Origin: a virus
Lineage: Duplodnaviria > Heunggongvirae > Uroviricota > Caudoviricetes
Direction: 5' to 3' (one strand)
DNA length: 36,178 nucleotides
IMG/VR virus record: IMGVR_UViG_2695420793_000017
The number at the start of each line of letters is the position of its first letter. Position 1 is the stretch's first letter. The position numbers and the translations under genes were made by a program. Below are positions 2,856 to 35,039 of this stretch, piece by piece. The notes below the pieces were generated by a model, which ran no database searches, was not told the origin of the DNA, and saw only the letters and a list, made by a program, of their open reading frames with translations.

Positions 2856-3074
2856 TCAAAGAGAGAGCGCCACCTGCCCTGATTTCATTGGATGCGGCTG
2901 AACCGGATTTGACTCTTTTGGCGTTGCAATCGAACGAACAAAAGTTTCATGGGTAACAAAAGTATGGCTGCAGTTAATGTTCTGGCACTGGTTGTAACGC
3001 TCTTTGGTCAATGAAGATACCTGAAAACTGCTGCGAGTATGGGCGGCACTTCCACACAGTGGGCAAATCATCAT
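2856..3074 (-). CDS. ogr: late gene transcriptional activator Ogr (zinc finger)
   Basis: CPLCG...CQNINC zinc-finger pattern; aligns with P2 Ogr as recalled; start placed at the second Met because the listed ORF begins at a GTG. Confidence 0.8.
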   Translation of the reverse strand: MMICPLCGSAAHTRSSFQVSSLTKERYNQCQNINCSHTFVTHETFVRSIATPKESNPVQPHPMKSGQVALSL

Positions 3075-3164
3075 TTTTCGAGTTCTCCCCATTTTTGCTA
3101 AATTCACAACAATGATACCGCATTATTCCATTTTGCAAACTTAAAAGTTCTCCATTGCGAAGAA

Positions 3165-4265
3165 TCATTCCATTTCGAAATCATCAATCCTCACTTCAAG
3201 CTCCAGACTGGTCGTAAAACCGTTATCCGGGCTGACGGTATGCGTCAGAGTCGTAATGGTCCATTCCGCATCATCTATCGGCTGTTTAAAGCCACTGACT
3301 TTCACTGGCATTTCCGTGTAGAGATCTGCCCGCCCTTCCGCCAGTTGTAGCGAGAATGACGCAACGCCGCGTTGCAGGCGTTCCCACTGCATTTTCGCTG
3401 CCCGTTCGGCGTTACTCCGATTAGCATAGGTGCGATTAAGTACCAGCACGTTTTCATCCGTACCCACCAGGTAATCGCCCTGCTTCGCTTCCGGCTCTTT
3501 CTTCTGCTTCTTAGTCCTGCGCTTACGCTTCACCGCGGTGCTTTCTTTCTTCGCGGGTTCGCGGGTATGCAACCAGCTGGCAATTACGCCCGTGTAAGCT
3601 CCGCGATCTGCCAGGGTAAAGCGGTGACTGTCGCCGTCCTTACGTGTGATAGTGATAACCGGTAGTGGTTTACCACTGGCGCTTTTACCCTGCCCCTGTC
3701 GGATGAATAACAGATTGCCATTTTTCACCGACGCAATAGCACCGTACTGGCGCGCCAGCCGCATCAGAAAACTGCCGTCACTCTCATTGGTCTGGTCTAT
3801 ATGTTCCACGGGTTTATCTGACAGGTCTTTACCCAATGCCATCTTCAGTTTGTGCCGCGCAGCTATTTCCTTCACCACTTCCCCAACGGTGGTCTTGTGC
3901 CACGACTTTTCACGGCGGGTATTCAGTGTTTCACGAAAATCAGCACTTCGCGCCCGGATAGTCAGGCGATCCGGTGCGCCAGTGTGTTCAATCTCGTCCA
4001 CCGTGAATGCCCCTTTCGGGAAAAGCAGCTGCCCCTTCCAGCCCAGCGCCAGCGTAATGACCGCACCACGGCGCGGCAGCACGATTTTTCCATCGGCGTC
4101 GTCCAGTTCCAGATCAAGCTGGTCCGCTTCAAAGCCCCGGTTATCCGTCAGCGTAAGCCCCATCAGGCGGTTGTCCAGCACAGTAGTGATATCCCTGCCT
4201 TCAATACTGATGCTGAATGCCGGAGTTTTGTTGCCTTTGTTAAGCAGTTCAGAGCTGAAATTCAC
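3165..4265 (-). CDS. D: tail protein D (late control D)
   Basis: 366-aa ORF at the P2 gpD position; translation resembles the gpD family. Confidence 0.8.
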   Translation of the reverse strand: MNFSSELLNKGNKTPAFSISIEGRDITTVLDNRLMGLTLTDNRGFEADQLDLELDDADGKIVLPRRGAVITLALGWKGQLLFPKGAFTVDEIEHTGAPDRLTIRARSADFRETLNTRREKSWHKTTVGEVVKEIAARHKLKMALGKDLSDKPVEHIDQTNESDGSFLMRLARQYGAIASVKNGNLLFIRQGQGKSASGKPLPVITITRKDGDSHRFTLADRGAYTGVIASWLHTREPAKKESTAVKRKRRTKKQKKEPEAKQGDYLVGTDENVLVLNRTYANRSNAERAAKMQWERLQRGVASFSLQLAEGRADLYTEMPVKVSGFKQPIDDAEWTITTLTHTVSPDNGFTTSLELEVRIDDFEME

Positions 4266-10096: not shown

Positions 10097-10136
10097 AAAT
10101 AACGGTATTTGTCCGCTTGCAGGAAAAATCTCTGCA

Positions 10137-10162
10137 TTTTTATAAACGTTGGTTTAGGAGAT
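10137..10162. promoter_or_regulatory. putative serine-invertase crossover site (gix/hix-like), left
   Basis: TTTTTATAAACG-TT-GGTTTAGGAGAT resembles the hix/gix 12-2-12 sites as recalled; its reverse complement shares a 10/12 half-site and the core with 11683-11708. Confidence 0.45.
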
Positions 10163-10515
10163 GCGGCAAAAAAAATGTTGGCACTGGTTCCGGACAGATT
10201 CCGGACATGTCTTCATTTGGTAATCAGCGAGCCGATTCGGGGTATCAATACCTGCCAGGCGGGTTAATTCTTCAATGGGCAATAGCCAAAACGAAAACAT
10301 CCCCAGAAACAGTATCATTCCCGATTGCGTTTCCAACCAGGGCGCTATGTGTTGTTGCAACAGACCAGAGTGTTGGGGGTACAGGTCAAGGTTTTGCGTT
10401 AACCGCCCAGAATTTTACGAGAACTAATTTCCAGCTACGCGCTTATCAGACAGGAACCAACGCTGAATCATCCATCGGCGCTGGCGGGTTTAACTATTTT
10501 GCTGTGGGGTATTAA
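10151..10515 (+). pseudogene. alternative tail-fibre C-terminal cassette, silent in this orientation and out of frame at an A8 tract
   Basis: the frame ending ...PGGLILQW...FPIAFP...FAVGY is homologous to the C-terminus of H; it has no in-frame 5' continuation unless a -1 shift occurs at A8 (10168-10175). Confidence 0.55.
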
Positions 10516-10518
10516 TAA

Positions 10519-10950
10519 ATGGCTTATTTTTATTCAGCATTAAATAACGCTTTCTACCCTGATGAGCTCAGAGATGTTTATGAAGCGAGTAGAAACTGGC
10601 CTGACGATCTCATAGCCGTCTCAGATGAGACATTCACTGAATATTCGGGGATGCCACCAGAGGGTAAAACTCGTGGAGCTACTGAGGATGGAATGCCGGC
10701 ATGGGTAGACATTCCACCTTTAAGCCATGAGGAGGAAATCGCAGCAGCTGAAGCTGAAAAACAGTATCGTATCGATCAGGCTAATGAGTATATAAACAGC
10801 AAGCAGTGGCCGGGTAAAGCTGCGCTGGGGCGACTTACAGACGACGAGAAGGCCCAGTATAACGAGTGGCTGGATTATCTCGATGCGCTGGAATCTGTGG
10901 ACATATCCAGCGCACCAGATATCAACTGGCCTGAGTCGCCGGAGGAGTAG
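10519..10950 (+). CDS. tail fibre assembly protein, alternative copy (tfa')
   Basis: 143-aa ORF homologous to the minus-strand tfa (shared ...AFY.DEL..., ...WPDD..., ...ALAEAEK... patterns); convergent with and overlapping it at 10922-10950. Confidence 0.7.
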
Positions 10951-11353
10951 GCCAGTCCGGGTCTGCTGTATCAACTCGCATCAGCAGCACCCGGTATTTT
11001 TTCCATTCGGCTAATGAAACAGTTTCTTCTTCCGTCGCGATCCCCGCATCAACGGCGTCCTGCCGCCATTCTATTTCAGAGTCAGCTGAAGCACGCAGTC
11101 GCGATTTTTCGGCTTCTGCCAACGCAATAATTTCCTCTTCAGTTGGTTCGGGAATATCTATCCATTCAGGTAAACCATCAGAATTAGGAGCGCGTAATTT
11201 TCCGTTAGGTGATTCTCCGGCAAACTCAACGAATACGGAATAGTCTACTTCAACGGCATCGTCAGGCCAGCTACCTGCATTTTCATAAATACTTTTTAGC
11301 TCATCAGCGTAGAACGCATTTTCTTTTGCAGAATAAAACATATTAATCACCAT
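10922..11353 (-). CDS. tail fibre assembly protein (gpG-like)
   Basis: 143-aa ORF immediately downstream of H; the P2 G position. Confidence 0.8.
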
Positions 11354-24019: not shown

Positions 24020-25270
24020 TTATCGCCATTTTAGATAAAAAGCAAAAAATGGATCAGTAATATGCAACTTTCGGTCCTCCTTATCCCAATCTATTACAGG
24101 AGTTGAAGCTTCTTCCGTAGCAGCTATTTTAGCCATTTTTTCTATAACACGAGTAACCTCATGAGCTTGTGGAGGAGCATCTTGCACCAGTTCGCGTATG
24201 GCTGATCTTAACTCCTCATACTGAATACTTTGCATTCCTGGTTTCATATGTGACAATGCATATAATACAACTTTATATATATCTACTTCCTCACCACTTT
24301 TCAGTTTTCTAGGAATTCTGTCAGTTCGCTGATTAGGGCCACTAGCTAACTTATCAAATACTATTTTCCCAGTGGATTCTGCAACCTTTCTAAAAATATC
24401 ATCATCTAAAGAATTAATAACTAACTTACTCGGCAAAGTTTCTTTAACATTATTTACTAAGCATATAGCCTTGCAAAACTCTTGCATTAAATGAGGGCTT
24501 CCCAATGATTCATTGGCAATTTTATCAATTACTGAATCACTAACTTCCATGTTTAACAGAGGAAATCCCACTTTTGCTATTTGTTTTAGTTCATCCATTT
24601 CCCACGAAGGCATGGAAATATTTTCTAGCCGTCCGGTAATTTCTTTTTCAACTTTTACAGCATCATATCTTCGATGTGGAATGGCTATCAGTACAACTGG
24701 TACTCCATCAAAAACTAATGGTTTTATCGCTCTAATAAAGTTACCTTGTAGGTCACGATCAAGGTAATGAAAGTCATCAATTATAAGACTAGACTTGGTT
24801 TGAGAGAGAACTTTTAGTGCAGAACTTTTTGCGGATATCGTTCGCGATTTTTTATTACCATTTGACTTTCCATCCGTCTGAACTAAACCAGCCTCACCTG
24901 TACCTTTAACAACGAATGCACTTGCGGTCCCCGATACCTTACCACTAACTGCAATAGCACTATTTTCTCCAGAATTAACTTCAATACTATGGTAGCCATT
25001 TAGTTTTTCTAATACCTGCTCCCAAATATCATCTTCAGTTGTAATACTCCCACCGTCAATCCATACAACATCATCGTCCATAACTGGGAATACCATTCTT
25101 GTAATTACAGTCTTACCAGACTTTGTTTGCCCAGTTAAAGTCACTAACTTACATAAATTATCTTTAGCACTCTCCAGTTTTCCATGAACCTCTCCTTCAG
25201 AGCGCTCAACATAAGTCAATTTCGGCATACCGCCAGGCACAAAAACTTGTGAAGCACGTTGTTTATCCAT
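24020..25270 (-). CDS. P-loop NTPase of unknown function (accessory gene, candidate anti-phage defence)
   Basis: 416-aa ORF; Walker A GQTKSGKT and Walker B-like LIIDDFHYLDRD; visibly AT-rich versus neighbours; lies between cos and Q. Confidence 0.8.
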   Translation of the reverse strand: MDKQRASQVFVPGGMPKLTYVERSEGEVHGKLESAKDNLCKLVTLTGQTKSGKTVITRMVFPVMDDDVVWIDGGSITTEDDIWEQVLEKLNGYHSIEVNSGENSAIAVSGKVSGTASAFVVKGTGEAGLVQTDGKSNGNKKSRTISAKSSALKVLSQTKSSLIIDDFHYLDRDLQGNFIRAIKPLVFDGVPVVLIAIPHRRYDAVKVEKEITGRLENISMPSWEMDELKQIAKVGFPLLNMEVSDSVIDKIANESLGSPHLMQEFCKAICLVNNVKETLPSKLVINSLDDDIFRKVAESTGKIVFDKLASGPNQRTDRIPRKLKSGEEVDIYKVVLYALSHMKPGMQSIQYEELRSAIRELVQDAPPQAHEVTRVIEKMAKIAATEEASTPVIDWDKEDRKLHITDPFFAFYLKWR

Positions 25271-25378
25271 GAATACTTCCCAATTAACACAGTTCTAGTG
25301 AACTACGATTCTAAAATAACATCTGAGCTTGGACAATTAACATTACATGATTTGAGTATTCAAAGCCACAAGCGCGCG

Positions 25379-25397
25379 CTCGTATCCCCGCCACGCC
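25379..25397 (-). other. putative cos cohesive-end sequence
   Basis: minus strand reads GGCGTGGCGGGGATACGAG, matching the start of the P2/186 cohesive ends as I recall them; exact 3' part differs. Confidence 0.5.
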
Positions 25398-25776
25398 TGC
25401 CCGCTTTATGCAGTGGTTTTCATGCACATGCATGACATGAGCAAAAGCCCGCCAGTTCTGGCGGATCTGAGCAAAGACGATCCTCAATCGATCATGCGAT
25501 TTCATGCAGCATAGTCATGCACTGTCAAGGAAGTGAAAATCCGTATCTGAATGGCCACTTGAAAAACGGATCATACGGGTTTACAAAGATGAATGTTCGC
25601 TGTGAACGGGAAGCGGAAGTTAGCTTTCAGATAACATAATCCATATGCACGAGAACCTCTAAAATAGAATGGGACACCTAAGCGGGGTACTTACAACGAT
25701 TCTTTCCATATTCACAGTTAACACTCTGTTTGGCGTATTTTTATTCAAATAGCAAACACCAATAAAAGGAGTTTCC

Positions 25777-26112
25777 ATGAACAATATTCCCCCTATACCA
25801 CAGTTAGGAATTTATGTCTCAAAAATCGATCCCACCCTACGTATCACTGTAACCGATGTTGATATTGTTGATGGTGAGGATGATTCTCCTGATGATGAAT
25901 TGTTTTATTTAGTCCACTGGATCGAGGGGGAAGATGAAAGTGATATGACAGCAATGGGATTTGAGCTAGACCCAGTAGAGTGGCAGGCTTTCGTTGAATC
26001 TGAGCAATTAGTGTTTGAGCGTGATCCGTACATGGATTCAATCCCCGAAAATTCAAACTTGGCAAAGATTCGGGATTTTCTCATGAAGACTAAACAGAAT
26101 GATCATTCGTAA
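25777..26112 (+). CDS. highly acidic hypothetical protein (possible DNA mimic)
   Basis: 111-aa ORF; AAAGGAG Shine-Dalgarno 7 nt upstream; about 26 Asp/Glu versus about 7 Lys/Arg by hand count. Confidence 0.65.
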   Translation: MNNIPPIPQLGIYVSKIDPTLRITVTDVDIVDGEDDSPDDELFYLVHWIEGEDESDMTAMGFELDPVEWQAFVESEQLVFERDPYMDSIPENSNLAKIRDFLMKTKQNDHS

Positions 26113-29304: not shown

Positions 29305-30158
29305 ACACGCACCTCGTACACAGCAGAACTATCCACGCCACGCGAAGGATCAAATCCCATCCAGCAGCGCGGCCCGGAAACAGCAATGATTTCTGTTGCA
29401 GATTTACTCTCGCCAGCCGACACGCCGATGCTGCGTTTTGCCTTGATGTAGTGGTGAGTGAAATTGCGATACAGCGAACGGATCAGGGATGTGTCACTGT
29501 TAGAAACAATGACCGGATGACCTTCAGATGATCGATGTTCAAGAACGGATGCCAGGTGATACTGGTCATCCTCAGTGAAGCCATCAGTGTGATAGCCGGA
29601 AAACGTACCGTCATACGGCGGATCGCAATACACCACATCCCCCACCTGCAGCATCGCCAGCGTTTCATCAAAGCTGGCGCAGATAAACGTTGCTCGCTGG
29701 GCTTTCTCTGCAAATGCGCGAATTTCTTTTTCAGGGAAATACGGATTTTTATAATTACCGTAGGGAATGTTGAAATGCCCGCTCTTGTTATAGCGACATA
29801 ACCCACGGTAACCGTGACGATTGAGATACAGGAAATATACCGCTTTCATGAAATCAGTAATTTCAGTGGAGTAATTAAACTCCTGCCTTATGTTGTAATA
29901 AGCCACCTCCCTGTTTGCTTCCTCAAATAAAGCTCTGGCACGAGATATAAACGCCTCGCAATCAGCAGCAACCTTTTTATAGAGGTTGATTAAATCAGGA
30001 TTAATATCCGCAACAAGATAGCTGGGGTAATCCGTCTCTATCATCACAGCACAAGAACCCGCGAAAGGTTCAACCAGTCGCGGGCCAGCAGGAAGGTATT
30101 TTTTCAGTTCCGGCATAATGGCGGTTTTATTACCCGCCCATTTCAGGATGGTGCTCAT
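29301..30158 (-). CDS. DNA adenine methyltransferase (Dam-like)
   Basis: DPPY catalytic motif and FAGSCAV SAM-binding motif; start set at [11 protein letters not shown] (ATG 30158), overlapping the upstream gene's stop. Confidence 0.8.
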
Positions 30159-30382
30159 ACAGCACCTCCGTTGTAATGTTTGCCTTTCAGCTCTGCGATT
30201 TCCTGACAGGTAATGCAAAGCTGCACACCCGGAATGGCGCGACGTCGTGCTGGCGGAATTGGTGCTTCGCACTCAATGCAAAGCACGCGGGATACGCCCG
30301 GCGTTTTGGCGCGGGCAGCACGGATATGACGCTGGCGTTCTTCTTCAACGCGCTGCTGTACGAGATCCATTGCATCAGCCAT
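30155..30382 (-). CDS. TraR/DksA-family C4 zinc-finger protein
   Basis: 75-aa ORF with CIEC...N17...CITC. Confidence 0.7.
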   Translation of the reverse strand: MADAMDLVQQRVEEERQRHIRAARAKTPGVSRVLCIECEAPIPPARRRAIPGVQLCITCQEIAELKGKHYNGGAV

Positions 30383-30621
30383 CAGTGGATCTCCTGCGCT
30401 TCGTTCTGGATTGCTTCAGCAGTCACACGCAGCAGTTCTGCCGCTTCGACGTGGTTTAGCTGGCGGGATGTGATATGACACGCCAGGCTATCAAGGCGAG
30501 CTGCCATTGCTTCAGCCCTTGCCCGGCGTTCTTCCAGACGAGCCTCTGTCAGTAAAATATTAAGCCCTGCATCATCCGGTCCGGTTTTAGTCGTGAGGAT
30601 TTCAATATTACGCATAATCAA
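30382..30621 (-). CDS. hypothetical early protein
   Basis: 79-aa ORF tightly packed in the early operon. Confidence 0.5.
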   Translation of the reverse strand: MIMRNIEILTTKTGPDDAGLNILLTEARLEERRARAEAMAARLDSLACHITSRQLNHVEAAELLRVTAEAIQNEAQEIH

Positions 30622-30682
30622 TTCTCCTGAATTTAGATAAAGGGATGCCTGGCGGGTTTACGCCATGAATTTCATTAGTTGG

Positions 30683-31024
30683 TTAATTCGGCATGGTTAG
30701 CCGTCTGGGAAATAAGCTCACCACTGCACGAAAATGATTCATTGCTTTAATCAGCTCCCGCTTTTCGTCAGTGGTCAGCTCATTAATGCTGATGCTATGA
30801 CGTTCAGCTGGAATTTTTGCCATAAAGAATATGGCAGCCAGTGCCCGTTTATTTTGTTCATTATTGATATCCCGTGGATCACGCATATCTTTAATAAACC
30901 GCTCAAGCTCTGACTCAATATTCAGGCCAAAAACTTTCGCTCTTAATTCCGCAATGTGATTAAGTCCATTCAGGCGTTCACCGGGGCTTAATGGAACAGT
31001 CGCCGCAGCGCCATTAATTGCCAT
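30683..31024 (-). CDS. hypothetical early protein
   Basis: 113-aa ORF in the early operon; no family recognised. Confidence 0.5.
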   Translation of the reverse strand: MAINGAAATVPLSPGERLNGLNHIAELRAKVFGLNIESELERFIKDMRDPRDINNEQNKRALAAIFFMAKIPAERHSISINELTTDEKRELIKAMNHFRAVVSLFPRRLTMPN

Positions 31025-31046
31025 AATTCATATCCCCAAAACGCAA

Positions 31047-31271
31047 CTATCGTTCTTTGTTCTTACGGTAACGCTCAAGGGGAGATACATTTTTTCGTAC
31101 CGTCTCTTTAACCTGCTCTCCCCGTAAAAACGTCCCATCCTTTAGTGTGAAAAAGTAACTGCCATCGCCCGACAACGACGGATAACAACAGAGCAAATCA
31201 TCTTCAGGTACTGAATAACTATCCCCTCTGTAACGAAACTGATAAACCACTTCACTTTCTGCCGCATACAT
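31047..31271 (-). CDS. hypothetical early protein
   Basis: 74-aa ORF; overlaps an alternative-frame ORF (31142-31384) that starts inside the 60-bp repeat, so which frame is real is unresolved. Confidence 0.35.
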   Translation of the reverse strand: MYAAESEVVYQFRYRGDSYSVPEDDLLCCYPSLSGDGSYFFTLKDGTFLRGEQVKETVRKNVSPLERYRKNKER

Positions 31272-31361
31272 TTGGACTTTCTCCGTTTCCTCGTGGTCAC
31301 TTCAGACAGCAATTCATCTTGTGAATAACATGGATGCCAGCGTTTACCATCCTCACCCATG

Positions 31362-31421
31362 ATCCAGCCGTGACCGTAGTGCATTGCCGGGCTTTGTTTT
31401 ACCAGCAGCGATGCAAATGAT
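31362..31421. repeat. 60-bp direct repeat, copy 1
   Basis: 59/60 identical to 32165-32224; on the minus strand it carries an ATG and the first codons MHYGHGWI. Confidence 0.8.
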
Positions 31422-31511
31422 TGTGCCGGGAATTTTTCTACACGCCCGGCGCGTGCCTCAGTGGTAGACTATTTGTGCTAACAATCATCTACCCCTCAAA
31501 GGAGAAAACTG

Positions 31512-31592
31512 ATGTCAGAAACAGACAACTTTCATGTACTCCCTCGCCCGGCTCCAGCACCTCAGCCTGAACCGGGGCAAGAGAAGAAATAG
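31512..31592 (+). CDS. possible 26-aa proline-rich leader peptide
   Basis: ATG with AAAGGAG 7 nt upstream; MSETDNFHVLPRPAPAPQPEPGQEKK; stop 9 nt before the next ATG; below the ORF-track size cut-off. Confidence 0.3.
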   Translation: MSETDNFHVLPRPAPAPQPEPGQEKK

Positions 31593-31601
31593 GAATCCGG
31601 C

Positions 31602-32060
31602 ATGACTAAACAAAGCTCCGAATACTTCCAATTACACTACTGTTATTACCTTGAACTAATGACAGCAACGTTCCATGGTCGAGCTGATAAATTAATGACA
31701 GCAATCCAACTTATAAGCGGAACAGCTGTATTTGCTAATACAGGTCTGGAATGGTTGTTCGCTTTTCCTGTTGTTGTAATCGCAACAATCCAACTTGTAT
31801 GGCAACCAGCTATTATTGCGGAACGAGCAAGCATACAAAGCCGACAATATGGTGAGTTGCTTTACGCCGAGGATGAATTGTCTCCACAGTTCATTGCACA
31901 AAAATTGAAAGCTTTGCATCACTCTGACTCCACAACATTCGGATCTTTGTTAAACCCTGCCTACAAAAGAGCTGCTATTGCCTGTGGTCGGGTTGACGAT
32001 GTAAACCTCAGCTTCCAAGAAAAACTTTTCGCTTGGTTCGCAGGTTGTTTGCCACGTTAA
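31602..32060 (+). CDS. hypothetical membrane protein (moron, opposite strand to the early operon)
   Basis: 152-aa ORF with a hydrophobic segment; AGGAAT Shine-Dalgarno; lower GC by eye; bracketed by the 60-bp direct repeats. Confidence 0.55.
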   Translation: MTKQSSEYFQLHYCYYLELMTATFHGRADKLMTAIQLISGTAVFANTGLEWLFAFPVVVIATIQLVWQPAIIAERASIQSRQYGELLYAEDELSPQFIAQKLKALHHSDSTTFGSLLNPAYKRAAIACGRVDDVNLSFQEKLFAWFAGCLPR

Positions 32061-32164
32061 CCATAAATCTTTGTAGGAATCGCTTTTTATTTCTTCCCCG
32101 GTAAGCCTGTTGCCGGGGTTGTAATTCAAAACTTGGATGCCACTTTTTCCCACAAGGTAAATAA

Positions 32165-32224
32165 ATCCAGCCGTGACCGTAGTGCATTGCCGGACTTTGT
32201 TTTACCAGCAGCGATGCAAATGAT
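32165..32224. repeat. 60-bp direct repeat, copy 2
   Basis: 59/60 identical to 31362-31421; immediately downstream of cII. Confidence 0.8.
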
Positions 32225-32248
32225 GGTTCTTTCGTCAGCATAAGCACC

Positions 32249-32758
32249 TCACAGCAAACCGAATGAAGCACCGAGGCCAGTCACGGTATCAACTGCACTC
32301 GCCATCGCAGGATTAGCCTGTAAACGGGCCTGCAATGAAACAGCAGCCAGCGCCATCAGTCGTGTTACAGAGTTAATGCTGCTGATAGCATCACGACGAC
32401 CGGCACTAGTTTTTACATCACCAGATACCGCACCTGCTGCAACACGTCCGATCTCTGCAGTTGCGCTCATGACGTAATGCGGCAGTTTCTCTTTTGCAAC
32501 CTCATTAATCGGTACACATGGCAGGCAGTGAATCTGTGCCAGAAAACCATCTACCAGCGTTGAATCTTCAGTCAGATCGGTAAGCAGCCAGATTTCTGGT
32601 GCAGTTAATAAATGAGGTTGAGATGGGTTCAGCTTGTTCCGCAGAATCTGCACATTCATGCCAGCACGTTCTGCCAGTTGCACCAGGTTGTGGCGCAATG
32701 CGAATGCACGACAGGCTTCATCAAAATGTGGATGTTTGGAAACTTGGTAATCAAACAT
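32249..32758 (-). CDS. cII: CII-like lysogeny establishment regulator (186 type)
   Basis: start set at [19 protein letters not shown]..., which matches the N-terminus and length of phage 186 CII as recalled. Confidence 0.75.
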
Positions 32759-32790
32759 GGTCGATACCCCTGATGTATCCCAAAATGGAA

Positions 32791-33012
32791 CTAGTTGAAT
32801 ACAACATTGCAATCAGTAAGTGCATCAACGGTAAGAGCAGCAAGGTTGATCATCACCTTTTCTCTTTTCTTGTCTTTCCGAAGGCGATGCCGAGGGATGC
32901 GACCGTCAGCCAGCATATCGTTAATTGTATCGATTGAAAGACCAGTAAGTTCGCTATAACGCTCAATTGTGACATGTGGCGTATTCAGAGTTATTGAAAT
33001 GTTAGGGGTCAT
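32791..33012 (-). CDS. apl: Apl/Cox-like excisionase and transcriptional regulator
   Basis: 73-aa HTH-like ORF divergent from cI and first gene of the lytic operon. Confidence 0.65.
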
Positions 33013-33100
33013 GATGCAACATCTCCTATTGGCTTGTGGTGAGCCGGTTTGAATTGTGACCAGAACTTCACAAAACGGAGATTAGGATCTCATAACGGTT

Positions 33101-34039
33101 ATGTCAACTCAAAAAAACACATTTCGCCATATTAGCGAGAGTCTAAAAACTTCAATAATGCAAAACCGTGGGGGACAGAAAGTAATTGAGCGTATACTTG
33201 CTGCGTATGGTTTTACTTCGCGGCAAGCATTTTGCAATCATCTGGGTATCTCACAAAGCACGATGGCTAACAGGTATGCTCGTGACACATTTCCTGCTGA
33301 CTGGGTGATAATTTGCAGTATAGAGACCGGCGCATCTATCGACTGGTTGGCATCGGGAATCAGCTGTGAATCATCCTCAGTTTTATTAAATGATGAACGT
33401 TTAGCCCATACCAAATCTGATGACCTGGATAGAACTAACTCAATAGCCCAAAAGTTCCCAATCGAGACCAGCATAAATCCTAATAAAGGAGGGAAGGCGG
33501 CAATTGATCGCTTAGTCGCAGCCTACGGCTTTAGCACCCGACAAGCCCTAGCAAACCATTTGCAGGTTTCAAAAAGCACTGTAGCAAACAGGTACTTACG
33601 AGACACGTTTCCTAGCGATTGGATCATTCAATGCGCTCTTGAAACAGGAACTTCATTACTCTGGCTCACAAACGGCAATGGCCCCAAATTTATCGATAAT
33701 TCCAGCTCTGTAGCCCAACTTAAACACCAAACAATCATTGACGGTAAATTACATGATGAAGGCTACTTAGCATTTGACAAGACGCTTATACCTTCCGGAT
33801 TGAAAAAACCTATTGGAGTTACCGCAGAAGGAAAAACCTTTATTGCAGATACAGAATATGATGATGTTTCAGATGGTAGTTGGTTGATTGAGATTGAAGG
33901 TAAAGTAAGTTTAAGAAAATTAACAAGAATTCCAGTTGGAAAAGTAAAAATCACATCAGATACAACTGATTTTGTTTGTAAGCTTGAAGACATTACAACC
34001 ATCGCAAAATGTTGTTGCGTTTTTTCAAAGGAAATTTAA
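33101..34039 (+). CDS. cI: CI-like immunity repressor with a tandemly duplicated N-terminal DNA-binding domain
   Basis: 312-aa ORF; two homologous modules (...ERILAAYGF.SRQAFCNHLGISQSTMANRYARDTFPADW... and ...DRLVAAYGFSTRQALANHLQVSKSTVANRYLRDTFPSDW...) followed by a C-terminal domain. Confidence 0.75.
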   Translation: MSTQKNTFRHISESLKTSIMQNRGGQKVIERILAAYGFTSRQAFCNHLGISQSTMANRYARDTFPADWVIICSIETGASIDWLASGISCESSSVLLNDERLAHTKSDDLDRTNSIAQKFPIETSINPNKGGKAAIDRLVAAYGFSTRQALANHLQVSKSTVANRYLRDTFPSDWIIQCALETGTSLLWLTNGNGPKFIDNSSSVAQLKHQTIIDGKLHDEGYLAFDKTLIPSGLKKPIGVTAEGKTFIADTEYDDVSDGSWLIEIEGKVSLRKLTRIPVGKVKITSDTTDFVCKLEDITTIAKCCCVFSKEI

Positions 34040-34049
34040 AGGAACATAC

Positions 34050-35039
34050 ATGAATTCTGAAAATAAAAAAAATGAAAACAACGATTATGTTGAAAAAGTT
34101 AATTGCGAATGGAAAGATCTTTATAATATTTTAAATGAAAATCTGCATAAATTTAATGAAAATGAACGCGCCTACTTAGTCGACTTATTAAAAAAAGGTG
34201 AACTTGATAAATTCAGAGAATACTACTGGAAATTAGCCCAGCAAGAAAAAATGAACTACAGCGATAAAGCTGGAGATATTTTTATTAATGAAAACAATAA
34301 GATAGATGAATTAATAAAAGAACAAAAACATCTTCGAGAGATAATGCGATCATATACCAAACGTTTATTGGAGGCTGAAGAGTCCAAAGCTACGTTACAT
34401 CTTCGGAATGAGAATTTAGAAAAACTAAATTCTGAAAAAGAAGCAATTATTGAGCAAGCCGTATCTAGAATAAAGCAACTTGAAGCATCTAACAGCGAAT
34501 TACAAAGCCGAGTACAACAAGAAAGGATTGATGAGAAAATACCAGGATATGTCGATAGCGTTAAAAGTGAACTAAGTTCAGATGACTTATATTTCATTAA
34601 AATGTCGCAAGTATGGGCTTTTACTGGCTGCATTTTTGGGCTACTTGCTGTATGTGCATCATTTTATACACTCTACGCCACAATTGACTTCAACAATGTT
34701 AAAGGCTTTGAGCTATTTTATTTTTTCACACGTGGTTTAATTGGTATTTCCATTCTTTCTTGGCTAGCATATATTTGCCTTGGCAACTCTAAAAAATATA
34801 CCCATGAATCAATTTTGAGAAAAGATAGAAGACATGCACTAATGTTTGGGCAAGTATTCCTGCAAATTTATGGTTCCACGTCAACAAAAGAAGATGCTGT
34901 GTTAGTCTTTAAAGACTGGAATATGTCTGGTAACTCTGCATTTTCTGACAAAACAGAACTCCCTCCGGGAATCCAATCTTTATGGGATTCAACCAAAGAA
35001 AAACTAAAGCCAAGTACCGCTGAAAAAGCACAGGAGTGA
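34050..35039 (+). CDS. hypothetical coiled-coil/two-TM protein (AT-rich moron between cI and int)
   Basis: start set at MNSENKK (AGGAA Shine-Dalgarno); Lys/Glu/Asn-rich coiled-coil N-half, two hydrophobic helices; strongly AT-rich by eye. Confidence 0.7.
   Translation: MNSENKKNENNDYVEKVNCEWKDLYNILNENLHKFNENERAYLVDLLKKGELDKFREYYWKLAQQEKMNYSDKAGDIFINENNKIDELIKEQKHLREIMRSYTKRLLEAEESKATLHLRNENLEKLNSEKEAIIEQAVSRIKQLEASNSELQSRVQQERIDEKIPGYVDSVKSELSSDDLYFIKMSQVWAFTGCIFGLLAVCASFYTLYATIDFNNVKGFELFYFFTRGLIGISILSWLAYICLGNSKKYTHESILRKDRRHALMFGQVFLQIYGSTSTKEDAVLVFKDWNMSGNSAFSDKTELPPGIQSLWDSTKEKLKPSTAEKAQE

Follow-up and report, generated by a model that had tools for sequence, protein, structure and literature searches.

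SLATT proteins are predicted to be gated, pore-forming effectors and are found in CBASS, DRT10/UG17, DRT3, RADAR, and TIR-SLATT loci (PMC9226505; PMC7159879; PMC9503650; bioRxiv 10.64898/2026.04.29.721553). They are small, all-helical proteins carried on mobile elements, in which a two-helix membrane hairpin is flanked by cytoplasmic helices, and they have a signaling partner. A protein of similar architecture, here called X, is encoded in a 36,178-nucleotide stretch of viral DNA (IMG/VR record IMGVR_UViG_2695420793_000017), which in its entirety is referred to below as the window. Unlike the known SLATT effectors, X has as its conserved partner a proline-rich peptide of 24-50 residues, which is encoded upstream of it behind a candidate promoter of its own. 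In the window, the small open reading frame (ORF) for this peptide, sORF26, and the gene for X form a cassette on the plus strand (approximately 31421-32130), antisense to the pR early operon, and a long direct repeat lies on either side of X. On balance, we consider it rather probable that the cassette is an autonomous two-gene unit, that the repeats were born from a crossover, and that X has an inferred SLATT-like function in exclusion or abortive infection.

The window comprises a complete 186/Fels-2-type (Peduoviridae; P2/186-like) prophage of Escherichia coli, located between ybjL and rcdA, and it is 100% identical to the corresponding DNA of E. coli Ecol_224 (NZ_CP018948). Its gene order agrees with that of phage 186. 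In phage 186, fil and dhr occupy the corresponding slot of the pR operon, downstream of cII (cII - fil (75 aa) - dhr - tR1), and both fil copies of the window fall into the Pfam family Phage_186_Fil. The 186 locus differs in having a single fil, the terminator tR1, no cassette, and dhr in the place where the window phage has orf74 and DUF5347. In Salmonella Typhimurium LT2, the Fels-2 region STM2733-STM2735 contains this cassette too, with the same orientation, a small ORF, a promoter-like element, and an X homolog of 88% amino acid identity; in contrast to the window, Fels-2 has one fil and no truncated second copy. The Yersinia phage vB_YenM_42.18 contains the cassette in the same arrangement, with an X homolog of 36% amino acid identity. 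In both of these phages, a non-conserved ORF has been annotated opposite X (STM2733.1 at 2595-2999 of locus L003, and gp08 at 3312-3977 of locus L004); the wrong strand was thus chosen in both records, and X and its small ORF are unannotated there. The literature on STM2734, on Fels-2 antisense transcripts, and on SLATT proteins in prophages yielded nothing on this pair of genes, which is apparently an uncharacterized two-gene module and new to the literature.

Several small inner-membrane proteins, among them RexB of lambda, SieB of lambda and P22, and Imm of T4, exclude other phages; they are morons located in or near immunity and early regions, and the prophage expresses them. In the Providencia lambdoid phage PSTNGR2lys, the module is situated in the pL-operon region, where lambda has sieB. 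X shares no sequence similarity with these proteins (no match to Pfam SieB or another family at E ≤ 1) and, unlike them, it lies antisense to the operon and has a micropeptide as its partner. Membrane toxins of the hok/sok type exclude T4 upon the shut-off of host gene expression, and mgtP and mgtL of Salmonella are leader peptides with proline codons. Both are conceptual analogues, without homology, for the release or up-regulation of a membrane-active protein upon infection; an antisense RNA or attenuator structure was not identified at the cassette with Rfam or a single-sequence fold.

X belongs to an unannotated protein family. It matches phrog_6315 over its full length (8.9e-76), and proteins of exactly 152 residues with 66-99% identity are found in Escherichia, Salmonella, Citrobacter, Klebsiella, Enterobacter, Kosakonia, Yersinia, Hafnia, and Pectobacterium. 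When 1.84 billion cluster representatives were searched with a profile, 168 clusters at 50% identity emerged, almost all of 150-175 residues, and a further homolog search based on the family profile contributed little. The window and Fels-2 have 82% nucleotide identity, and their X genes differ by 18, 3, and 64 substitutions at the first, second, and third codon positions, respectively, and the corresponding figures for sORF26 are 3, 0, and 11; the minus strand across X is split into ORFs of 62-76 codons' worth of protein (62-76 aa). Judged from these sequences, both X and the small ORF are under purifying selection.

Structurally, X is predicted to be a membrane protein with two adjacent hydrophobic helices (residues 31-47 and 51-73 by hydropathy), separated by a loop of three residues. 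The AF2 model, built from an alignment of 107 sequences, is all-helical (pLDDT 94.6, pTM 0.87), with helices at residues 6-43, 50-67, 69-88, 95-106, 114-127, and 138-146; it supersedes a run with an eight-sequence alignment (pLDDT 62). X thus presents a transmembrane hairpin within a small all-helical protein, which is the architecture of SLATT proteins. When the 107 family members were scanned singly against NCBIfam, SLATT_4 was matched by 44 (best E 2.2e-5), SLATT_1 by 14, and SLATT_fungal by 2, while no family outside SLATT was matched by more than 7 of the 107. The SLATT matches agree in register; residues 21-91, for example, align with positions 19-96 of a 154-position profile. In a Foldseek search of BFVD, 9 of the top 24 matches, the best ones included, are annotated as SLATT, with a probability of up to 1.0; a sequence profile search of the PDB with X returned nothing meaningful. 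It is concluded that X is a putative distant, unannotated branch of the SLATT superfamily, linked to it by remote homology only and lying below every curated threshold. The two membrane helices are encoded by an internal repeat pair (Table 1), and in the IMG/VR contig L072 an in-frame deletion of 84 bp lies precisely between the two copies (4092-4114). It represents either a loss-of-function variant of natural origin or a collapse in the assembly.

The partner of X is similarly persistent. In nearly all of about 80 loci, a Pro-rich small ORF is found 5-13 nucleotides upstream of the X homolog; in one locus, it is frameshifted in an A-run. The peptides of distant loci contain, for instance, ...NDFHILHKPAPPEEKK... 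in vB_YenM_42.18, ...NHLNPKPIRPTPPPPSTP... in PSTNGR2lys, ...RIPREAPPPPAPSPQP... in L013, and ...ANVPPRPTPTGVLPP... in L090; those of L016 and L018 end in ...FNVPHRPAPVPVRPPQR and ...HVPRTPPPPPPAR, respectively, and that of L088 reads MPRPDQTKGQVPPKPPPPKPKLDL. RefSeq PGAP leaves the small ORF uncalled. Two tandem Pro-rich small ORFs precede the X homolog in L018 (approximately 2900-3136) and L015 (2-219), for example, MTIFDSFGDRGGAHVPRSPAPIPVPIQPEKQ followed by MNRDQNQEFKDHVPRTPPPPPPAR. A fusion of the small ORF to X by stop-codon read-through was also considered; the two are in frame in the close group and not in the distant loci, and read-through was rejected as a conserved feature.

The original prediction is borne out in part, and the organization of the cassette belongs to this part. 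Two plus-strand ORFs of 26 and 152 residues had been proposed, and both are conserved genes according to homology and codon-position bias; the gene map bears out their antisense position relative to the early operon; and the hydrophobic segment that had suggested a membrane protein corresponds to the two adjacent helices of X. A lower GC content had also been noted by eye, and it amounts to 44.3% for the cassette and 42% for the X gene against 47-48% for the flanks and 51% for the window, a modest difference.

From upstream to downstream, the cassette consists of a GC hairpin, an extended -10-like element, sORF26 and X, each with its Shine-Dalgarno sequence, and a closing hairpin. The GC hairpin is possibly an insulator or a regulator site; an equivalent hairpin precedes distant homologs and is a perfect bidirectional terminator in L016. 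The sequence TGGTAnnnT recurs at -50 or -51 relative to the ATG of the small ORF in the window, L003, L011, L079, and L090, at -42 in L016, and at -75 in L004, and in L005 and L014 a perfect TATAAT lies upstream of the small ORF. The leader between this element and sORF26 (31477-31511) is CA-rich (CCAAYCAAC..ACC) and recognizably conserved in the distant loci L011, L079, L090, L005, and L014. CII half-sites (ATGTTTG/CAAACAT) are present at the window equivalent of pE and absent upstream of sORF26, so activation by CII is unlikely. The cassette promoter region and the pR/pL switch have no 8-mer or longer sequence in common; thus, there is no evidence of control by CI. A Rfam search of 31000-32600 gave no match.

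The wider distribution of sORF and X is that expected of an autonomous moron module, since they are spread over very varied settings. In P2-like and lambdoid phages they are found in the early regions, in antisense orientation, and the module is often antisense to its neighbors. One lambdoid phage carries them in the interval from the Q antiterminator to the holins, and other sites are the gap between terminase and portal, a position beside baseplate genes, and the cargo of a Tn7-like element. Throughout about 90 related loci, the Pro-rich small ORF is the sole constant neighbor of X. At the position studied here, the cassette is present or absent among close relatives, and its base composition differs, modestly, from that of its surroundings. 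A moron, as understood by Hendrix and colleagues, is an independent transcription unit placed into a phage operon. The cassette may be inferred to be an autonomous accessory (moron) module, for which the promoter and terminator are candidates only.

Among relatives of the window, the cassette is rare in E. coli. A survey of 5,426 complete E. coli genomes, of which 1,320 match the region, revealed the cassette in 40, while about 1,280 have one fil and no cassette. The duplication is shared by 38 of the 40 carriers, whose cassettes are at least 99% identical; the other two (e.g. 14EC029, L019) are Fels-2-like and lack it. The duplication of the window type was also found in Escherichia sp. E1V33 and in six IMG/VR contigs. 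The 38 genomes represent one recent phage lineage. In the arrangement of L019, a gap of 38 nucleotides separates DUF5347 from the cassette, which is followed by filF and cII without a second fil; this order is also seen in Fels-2, Citrobacter, Enterobacter, and a MAG (metagenome-assembled genome), and about 45 of 65 IMG/VR loci are Fels-2-like, compared with 6 of the window type. Klebsiella-type loci have the order cII - filF - cassette - orf74 - DUF5347, and in Yersinia loci the cassette directly adjoins cII, with no fil.

The direct repeat that accompanies the cassette spans 63 nucleotides, of which 61 are identical between 31362-31424 and 32165-32227 (803 nucleotides from start to start), and it is the sole long repeat that a repeat search found in 30000-34000. 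A weaker extension, 78% identical, joins 31327-31349 and 32130-32152. A match of 63 nucleotides within 36 kb is too long for chance. The minus strand of both copies encodes ...SFASLLVKQSPAMHYGHGWI, followed by GKRWHP or GKKWHP. The original prediction had recognized the 60-nucleotide core (59 of 60 identical), with correct coordinates. It had also taken the ATG of MHYGHGWI as a gene start and the repeat as a duplicated gene start, which is not the case. In phage 186, Fels-2, and cassette-less E. coli relatives with an empty site, the true start of Fil lies 54 nucleotides upstream of that ATG (MLTKEPSFASLLVKQSPAMHYGHGWI), and the N-terminus reads MLK/TxEPSFASLLVKQSPxMHYGHGWI. The ATG of the repeat is therefore Met19 of Fil, and the repeat corresponds to nucleotides 15-77 of fil (codons 6-26).

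The two copies of the repeat belong to two different fil alleles. The right-hand allele, filF, is the only one that keeps the true start; its product scores 83.6 bits against Pfam Phage_186_Fil (PF10893), above the gathering score, over profile positions 1-51 of 56, and it matches phrog_816 over 1-64 of 66. The 3' ends of filF and X are convergent and overlap by 53 nucleotides. The left-hand allele, fil_L, reaches 48.3 bits over profile positions 15-48 of 56 only and matches phrog_32377 over 19-97 of 98. Compared with the 98-residue Fil of L002 (E. coli 2547), it lacks the first 14 nucleotides, the start codon, and the ribosome-binding site.

An empty site carrying one repeat copy, as had been predicted, exists in the approximately 1,280 cassette-less E. 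coli genomes. In L002, which serves as an example, one 63-nucleotide copy lies inside the single 98-codon fil (98 aa), and window positions 31000-31424 and 32165-32700 align to 1501-1925 and 1863-2398, respectively. On the left side, as far as 31424, the window belongs to the cassette-less type (95.7% identical to L002 over 29500-31424); on the right side, starting at 31421, it belongs to the cassette-bearing type (91.9% identical to L019 over 31421-33027). The microhomology at the junction is at most about 3 nucleotides, and the site is the base of the GC palindrome. These alignments strongly suggest that the repeats are a recombination scar from an unequal crossover between a cassette-bearing and a cassette-less phage. 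The parents would have been a Fels-2-type phage (cII - filF - cassette - DUF5347) and a phage of the common E. coli type (cII - fil_L - orf74 - DUF5347), and one unequal, illegitimate crossover would have fused the cassette's upstream edge to nucleotide 15 of fil_L. In the recombinant, the conserved 5' portion of fil would consequently be present twice, appearing as a 63-bp direct repeat. Such a single crossover is the simplest history that the sequences allow. The IMG/VR locus L027, with the order cII - fil - orf74 - DUF5347 (codons 1-29) joined to filF (codons 19-76) - X - sORF - DUF5347, is a second, independent unequal recombinant, in which a different junction accompanied cassette gain and partial gene duplication; its other junction supports the crossover reading.

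Alternatively, the repeats could stem from insertion of the cassette into fil as a transposon-like element, with duplication of 63 bp of the target. In favor of this, the window has exactly 803 bases more than the corresponding DNA of the approximately 1,280 E. coli genomes without the cassette, the addition being bounded by a direct repeat of 63 bp, and in every locus the cassette has its left boundary at one and the same nucleotide, beside the GC palindrome. Nevertheless, the supposed insert would take in two-thirds (the 3' part) of another, diverged fil allele, in which the Fil domain is essentially complete, the similarity extends past the repeat at 78%, and the widespread Fels-2-type loci, which are most of the carriers, have the cassette without any duplication. 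L027 has a different duplication, consisting of 5' codons of DUF5347 and of filF from codon 19. The repeat search found no terminal or flanking inverted repeats, and the annotation of the window includes no transposase. Known target-site duplications are far shorter than 63 bp. Transposon-style insertion with target duplication is hence largely refuted by the sequence comparison, is rejected here, and must be regarded as highly improbable. The original prediction of a cassette inserted into, or duplicated with, the 5' end of an early gene accordingly stands in so far as the cassette is present or absent between relatives; the insertion footprint does not stand, because the right copy is part of a complete, different fil allele that accompanies the cassette in Fels-2-type phages, where no second copy exists. 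A history in which the cassette was first inserted within fil and left the 3' part of fil downstream was rejected in view of the Klebsiella-type loci, which have no fil remnant in the gap between cassette and orf74.

As to function, a role of the cassette in exclusion or abortive infection is plausible. In a lysogen, CI would hold pR off, a constitutive promoter of the cassette would fire unopposed, and X would be placed in the inner membrane. On infection by another phage, X would permeabilize or depolarize the membrane, and exclusion or abortive infection would follow. The Pro-rich peptide might gate X, whether by being a labile partner or inhibitor or by serving as a leader that senses translation. 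After induction, head-on transcription from pR through the cassette would silence it by transcriptional interference, and the phage's own lytic cycle would be spared. Transcriptional interference between the convergent promoters pR and pL of phage 186 was reportedly described by Callen, Shearwin and Egan in 2004. A more far-reaching proposal, which is possible and at present doubtful, is that the micropeptide and the SLATT-like protein make up a previously undescribed, self-sufficient two-gene anti-phage system (for abortive infection or exclusion) of many temperate phages, in which the peptide or its translation would sense infection or gate a membrane pore and the antisense placement in early operons would act as an off-switch during the phage's own lytic growth.

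A number of observations weigh against the combination of an autonomous cassette, crossover-born repeats, and a SLATT-like effector. Known SLATT effectors act together with a nucleotide- or DNA-producing partner, such as a cyclase, TIR protein, or reverse transcriptase, and there is none here; no SMODS cyclase, SLOG, TIR, or reverse transcriptase was found beside X in the window and about 90 related loci. X itself has no match at E ≤ 1 in Pfam, NCBIfam, or PADLOC-DB v2 (the Fil copies are also without a PADLOC match). The SLATT scores of its family are 12-16 bits, compared with curated cut-offs of 55 (SLATT_4) and 41 (SLATT_1), the SLATT matches in BFVD are weak (E 0.04-1, TM 0.45-0.56), and structure searches of the PDB give generic helical folds only. 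With regard to expression, a generic sigma-70 scan called no promoter upstream of sORF26, the T-tail of the closing hairpin is weak (the stem is kept in Fels-2, the T-tail is not), and no data on expression of the cassette in any lysogen were found. Concerning the crossover, the cII alleles are equally close to both parental types, so that a single and a double crossover are indistinguishable, and the junction falls within about 4 nucleotides of the edge at which conservation of the cassette ends on the left in all other loci. This coincidence is somewhat surprising for a random illegitimate event and may point to a palindrome-directed or otherwise recurrent mechanism; alternatively, the left edge of the cassette may be the mere end of a conserved regulatory region.

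Other functions can be proposed for the pair of genes. The small ORF might be a cis-acting leader only, on whose Pro-rich stretch ribosomes pause and thereby tune the translation of X, much as in the proline-codon leaders mgtP and mgtL of Salmonella, the peptide itself being functionless. Pro-rich content is the most conserved property across distant loci, and the small ORF always stops 5-13 nucleotides before the start of X, whose Shine-Dalgarno sequence overlaps the small-ORF stop codon. We regard this as somewhat unlikely, as residues other than proline are conserved too (F-H-V/I-L/P-x-R/K-P-A-P), the substitutions are biased to the third position, and most versions of the peptide lack consecutive PPP or PPG, the strongest ribosome-stalling motifs; moreover, the single-sequence fold gave no evident conserved mRNA structure that would sequester the Shine-Dalgarno sequence of X. 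Both genes might instead form a toxin-antitoxin-like addiction or stabilization module, in which the membrane toxin X is held in check by the labile peptide and the main role is maintenance of the prophage or element. Such a module would be in keeping with the organization as two genes, the upstream one being small and a strong Shine-Dalgarno sequence being present, and with the occurrence on phages as well as on a Tn7-like element, and SLATT proteins have been reported to be toxic when deregulated (PMC9226505; bioRxiv 10.64898/2026.04.29.721553). Still, no known toxin-antitoxin or PADLOC model resembles X, the frequent antisense placement in early operons better fits lysogen-specific expression, and maintenance and abortive infection are in any case compatible with each other; an addiction module as the main role is therefore judged unlikely.

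The cassette might also serve the development of its own phage, as an antisense regulator of fil, cII, or early transcription, or through a modulation of lysis, lysogeny, or division by X together with Fil. X and filF are convergent with their overlap of 53 nucleotides, the terminator hairpin of X lies inside filF, and the cassette stands beside fil and cII in nearly all 186/Fels-2-type loci. Against this, sORF and X are found in unrelated contexts without fil or cII (lambdoid Q-holin interval, terminase-portal gap, baseplate genes, Tn7-like cargo), and in the Yersinia loci X abuts cII in the absence of fil. Purifying selection on both proteins further implies that the transcript is more than an antisense RNA. 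A developmental role is thus quite unlikely. An exclusion or abortive-infection function, exerted from a cassette of its own, remains the preferred reading of the locus, whose features are collected in Table 1.

Table 1. Features of the cassette, the repeats, and the neighboring early genes (positions of the window)
Feature	Position	Strand	Remarks
DUF5347	30683-31024	-	pR operon gene
orf74, 74-aa early gene	31047..31271	-	overlaps the 3' half of fil_L in another frame
fil_L remnant, 80-aa ORF from internal Met19	31142..31384	-	fil homology reaches 31424
Left repeat copy	31362..31424	-	fil nucleotides 15-77 in the 5'-truncated second allele fil_L; contiguous with the single fil of cassette-less relatives (L002, identity about 96-97% as far as 31424)
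Putative recombination junction	31421..31425		GCAAATGA / TTGTGCCGGG; fil_L homology stops and cassette homology starts (aligned with L002, L003, L019)
GC hairpin	31425..31450		GCCGGG-N14-CCCGGC; conserved, upstream cassette edge
Candidate extended -10 element	31462..31470	+	TGgTAGACT; 50 nt upstream of sORF26 ATG
sORF26, 26 aa, Pro-rich	31512..31592	+	MSETDNFHVLPRPAPAPQPEPGQEKK; strong Shine-Dalgarno AAGGAG, 31499-31504
X, 152 aa, SLATT-like, two predicted transmembrane helices	31602..32060	+	phrog_6315; RefSeq WP_060615101.1 "hypothetical protein"
Internal 43-nt repeat pair, 72% identical	31693-31735 and 31777-31819	+	codes for both membrane helices of X
filF, intact 77-aa Fil (cell-division inhibitor family)	32008..32241	-	RefSeq WP_001350183.1
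Terminator-like hairpin	32096..32118	+	36 nt past X stop, within filF coding sequence
Right repeat copy	32165..32227	-	same codons in the intact Fels-2-type fil; Fels-2-type loci have this copy only
cII	32249-32758	-	pR operon gene
apl	32791-33012	-	pR operon gene

The surroundings of the cassette follow the minus-strand pR early operon, the order of which is apl - cII - filF - cassette (antisense) - truncated fil_L - orf74 - DUF5347 - DUF2732 - TraR/DksA - Dam - gpA (replication endonuclease). By tblastn, homologs of orf74 with 58-63% amino acid identity are found in L009, L058, and L027, where no fil_L overlaps them; a Pfam search with orf74 gave no match, and it has no similarity to 186 Dhr. 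In the crossover reading, it was kept from the cassette-less parent phage. Klebsiella-type loci without an overlapping fil show the same 58-63% conservation of orf74. It is probably the real gene there, and the long C-terminus of the annotated 80- or 98-residue Fil is probably the product of read-through.

Additional peculiarities of the prophage lie outside the early operon. The CI repressor (33101-34039, plus strand) has 312 residues, with two tandem Phage_CI_repr helix-turn-helix domains and one CI C-terminal domain, in comparison with about 190 residues for an ordinary 186-type CI; a long CI (894 nucleotides) is also found in the relative L019. In the gap between cI and int of the lysogenic operon, the window encodes a coiled-coil protein of 329 residues with C-terminal hydrophobic segments (34050-35039, plus strand; phrog_2628, weak DUF2207_C), while L002 has an ORF of 63 codons' length (63 aa) and L019 an AAA ATPase in this place; it looks like a second variable accessory slot, co-expressed with the repressor. 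Between portal and replication gene (approximately 24020-26112), there are a 416-residue AAA_22/TniB-like ATPase and small hypothetical ORFs. Rousset et al. 2022 (PMC9122126) have described this interval as the P2 hotspot, and the prophage thus probably has more accessory or defense cargo. At approximately 10100-11350 (locus L085, 11106-12342), tail-fiber assembly genes are located on both strands beside the tail-fiber gene, a layout like that of an invertible or alternative tail-fiber segment.

In terms of phage evolution, the repeats would be an ordinary, albeit instructive, scar, which marks an accessory cassette moving between P2/186-like phages through at least two independent junctions. 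The cassette itself is more valuable than the repeats, as it is conserved, absent from Pfam and PADLOC, and spread over P2-like, lambdoid, and other phages as well as a Tn7-like element. Its hosts include well-studied strains, such as S. Typhimurium LT2 with Fels-2 and E. coli NC101. If the proposed role in defense or exclusion is true, X would be a SLATT-type effector that operates without nucleotide signaling and has a Pro-rich micropeptide as its sole partner, and the module would provide a minimal system for the gating of SLATT proteins.

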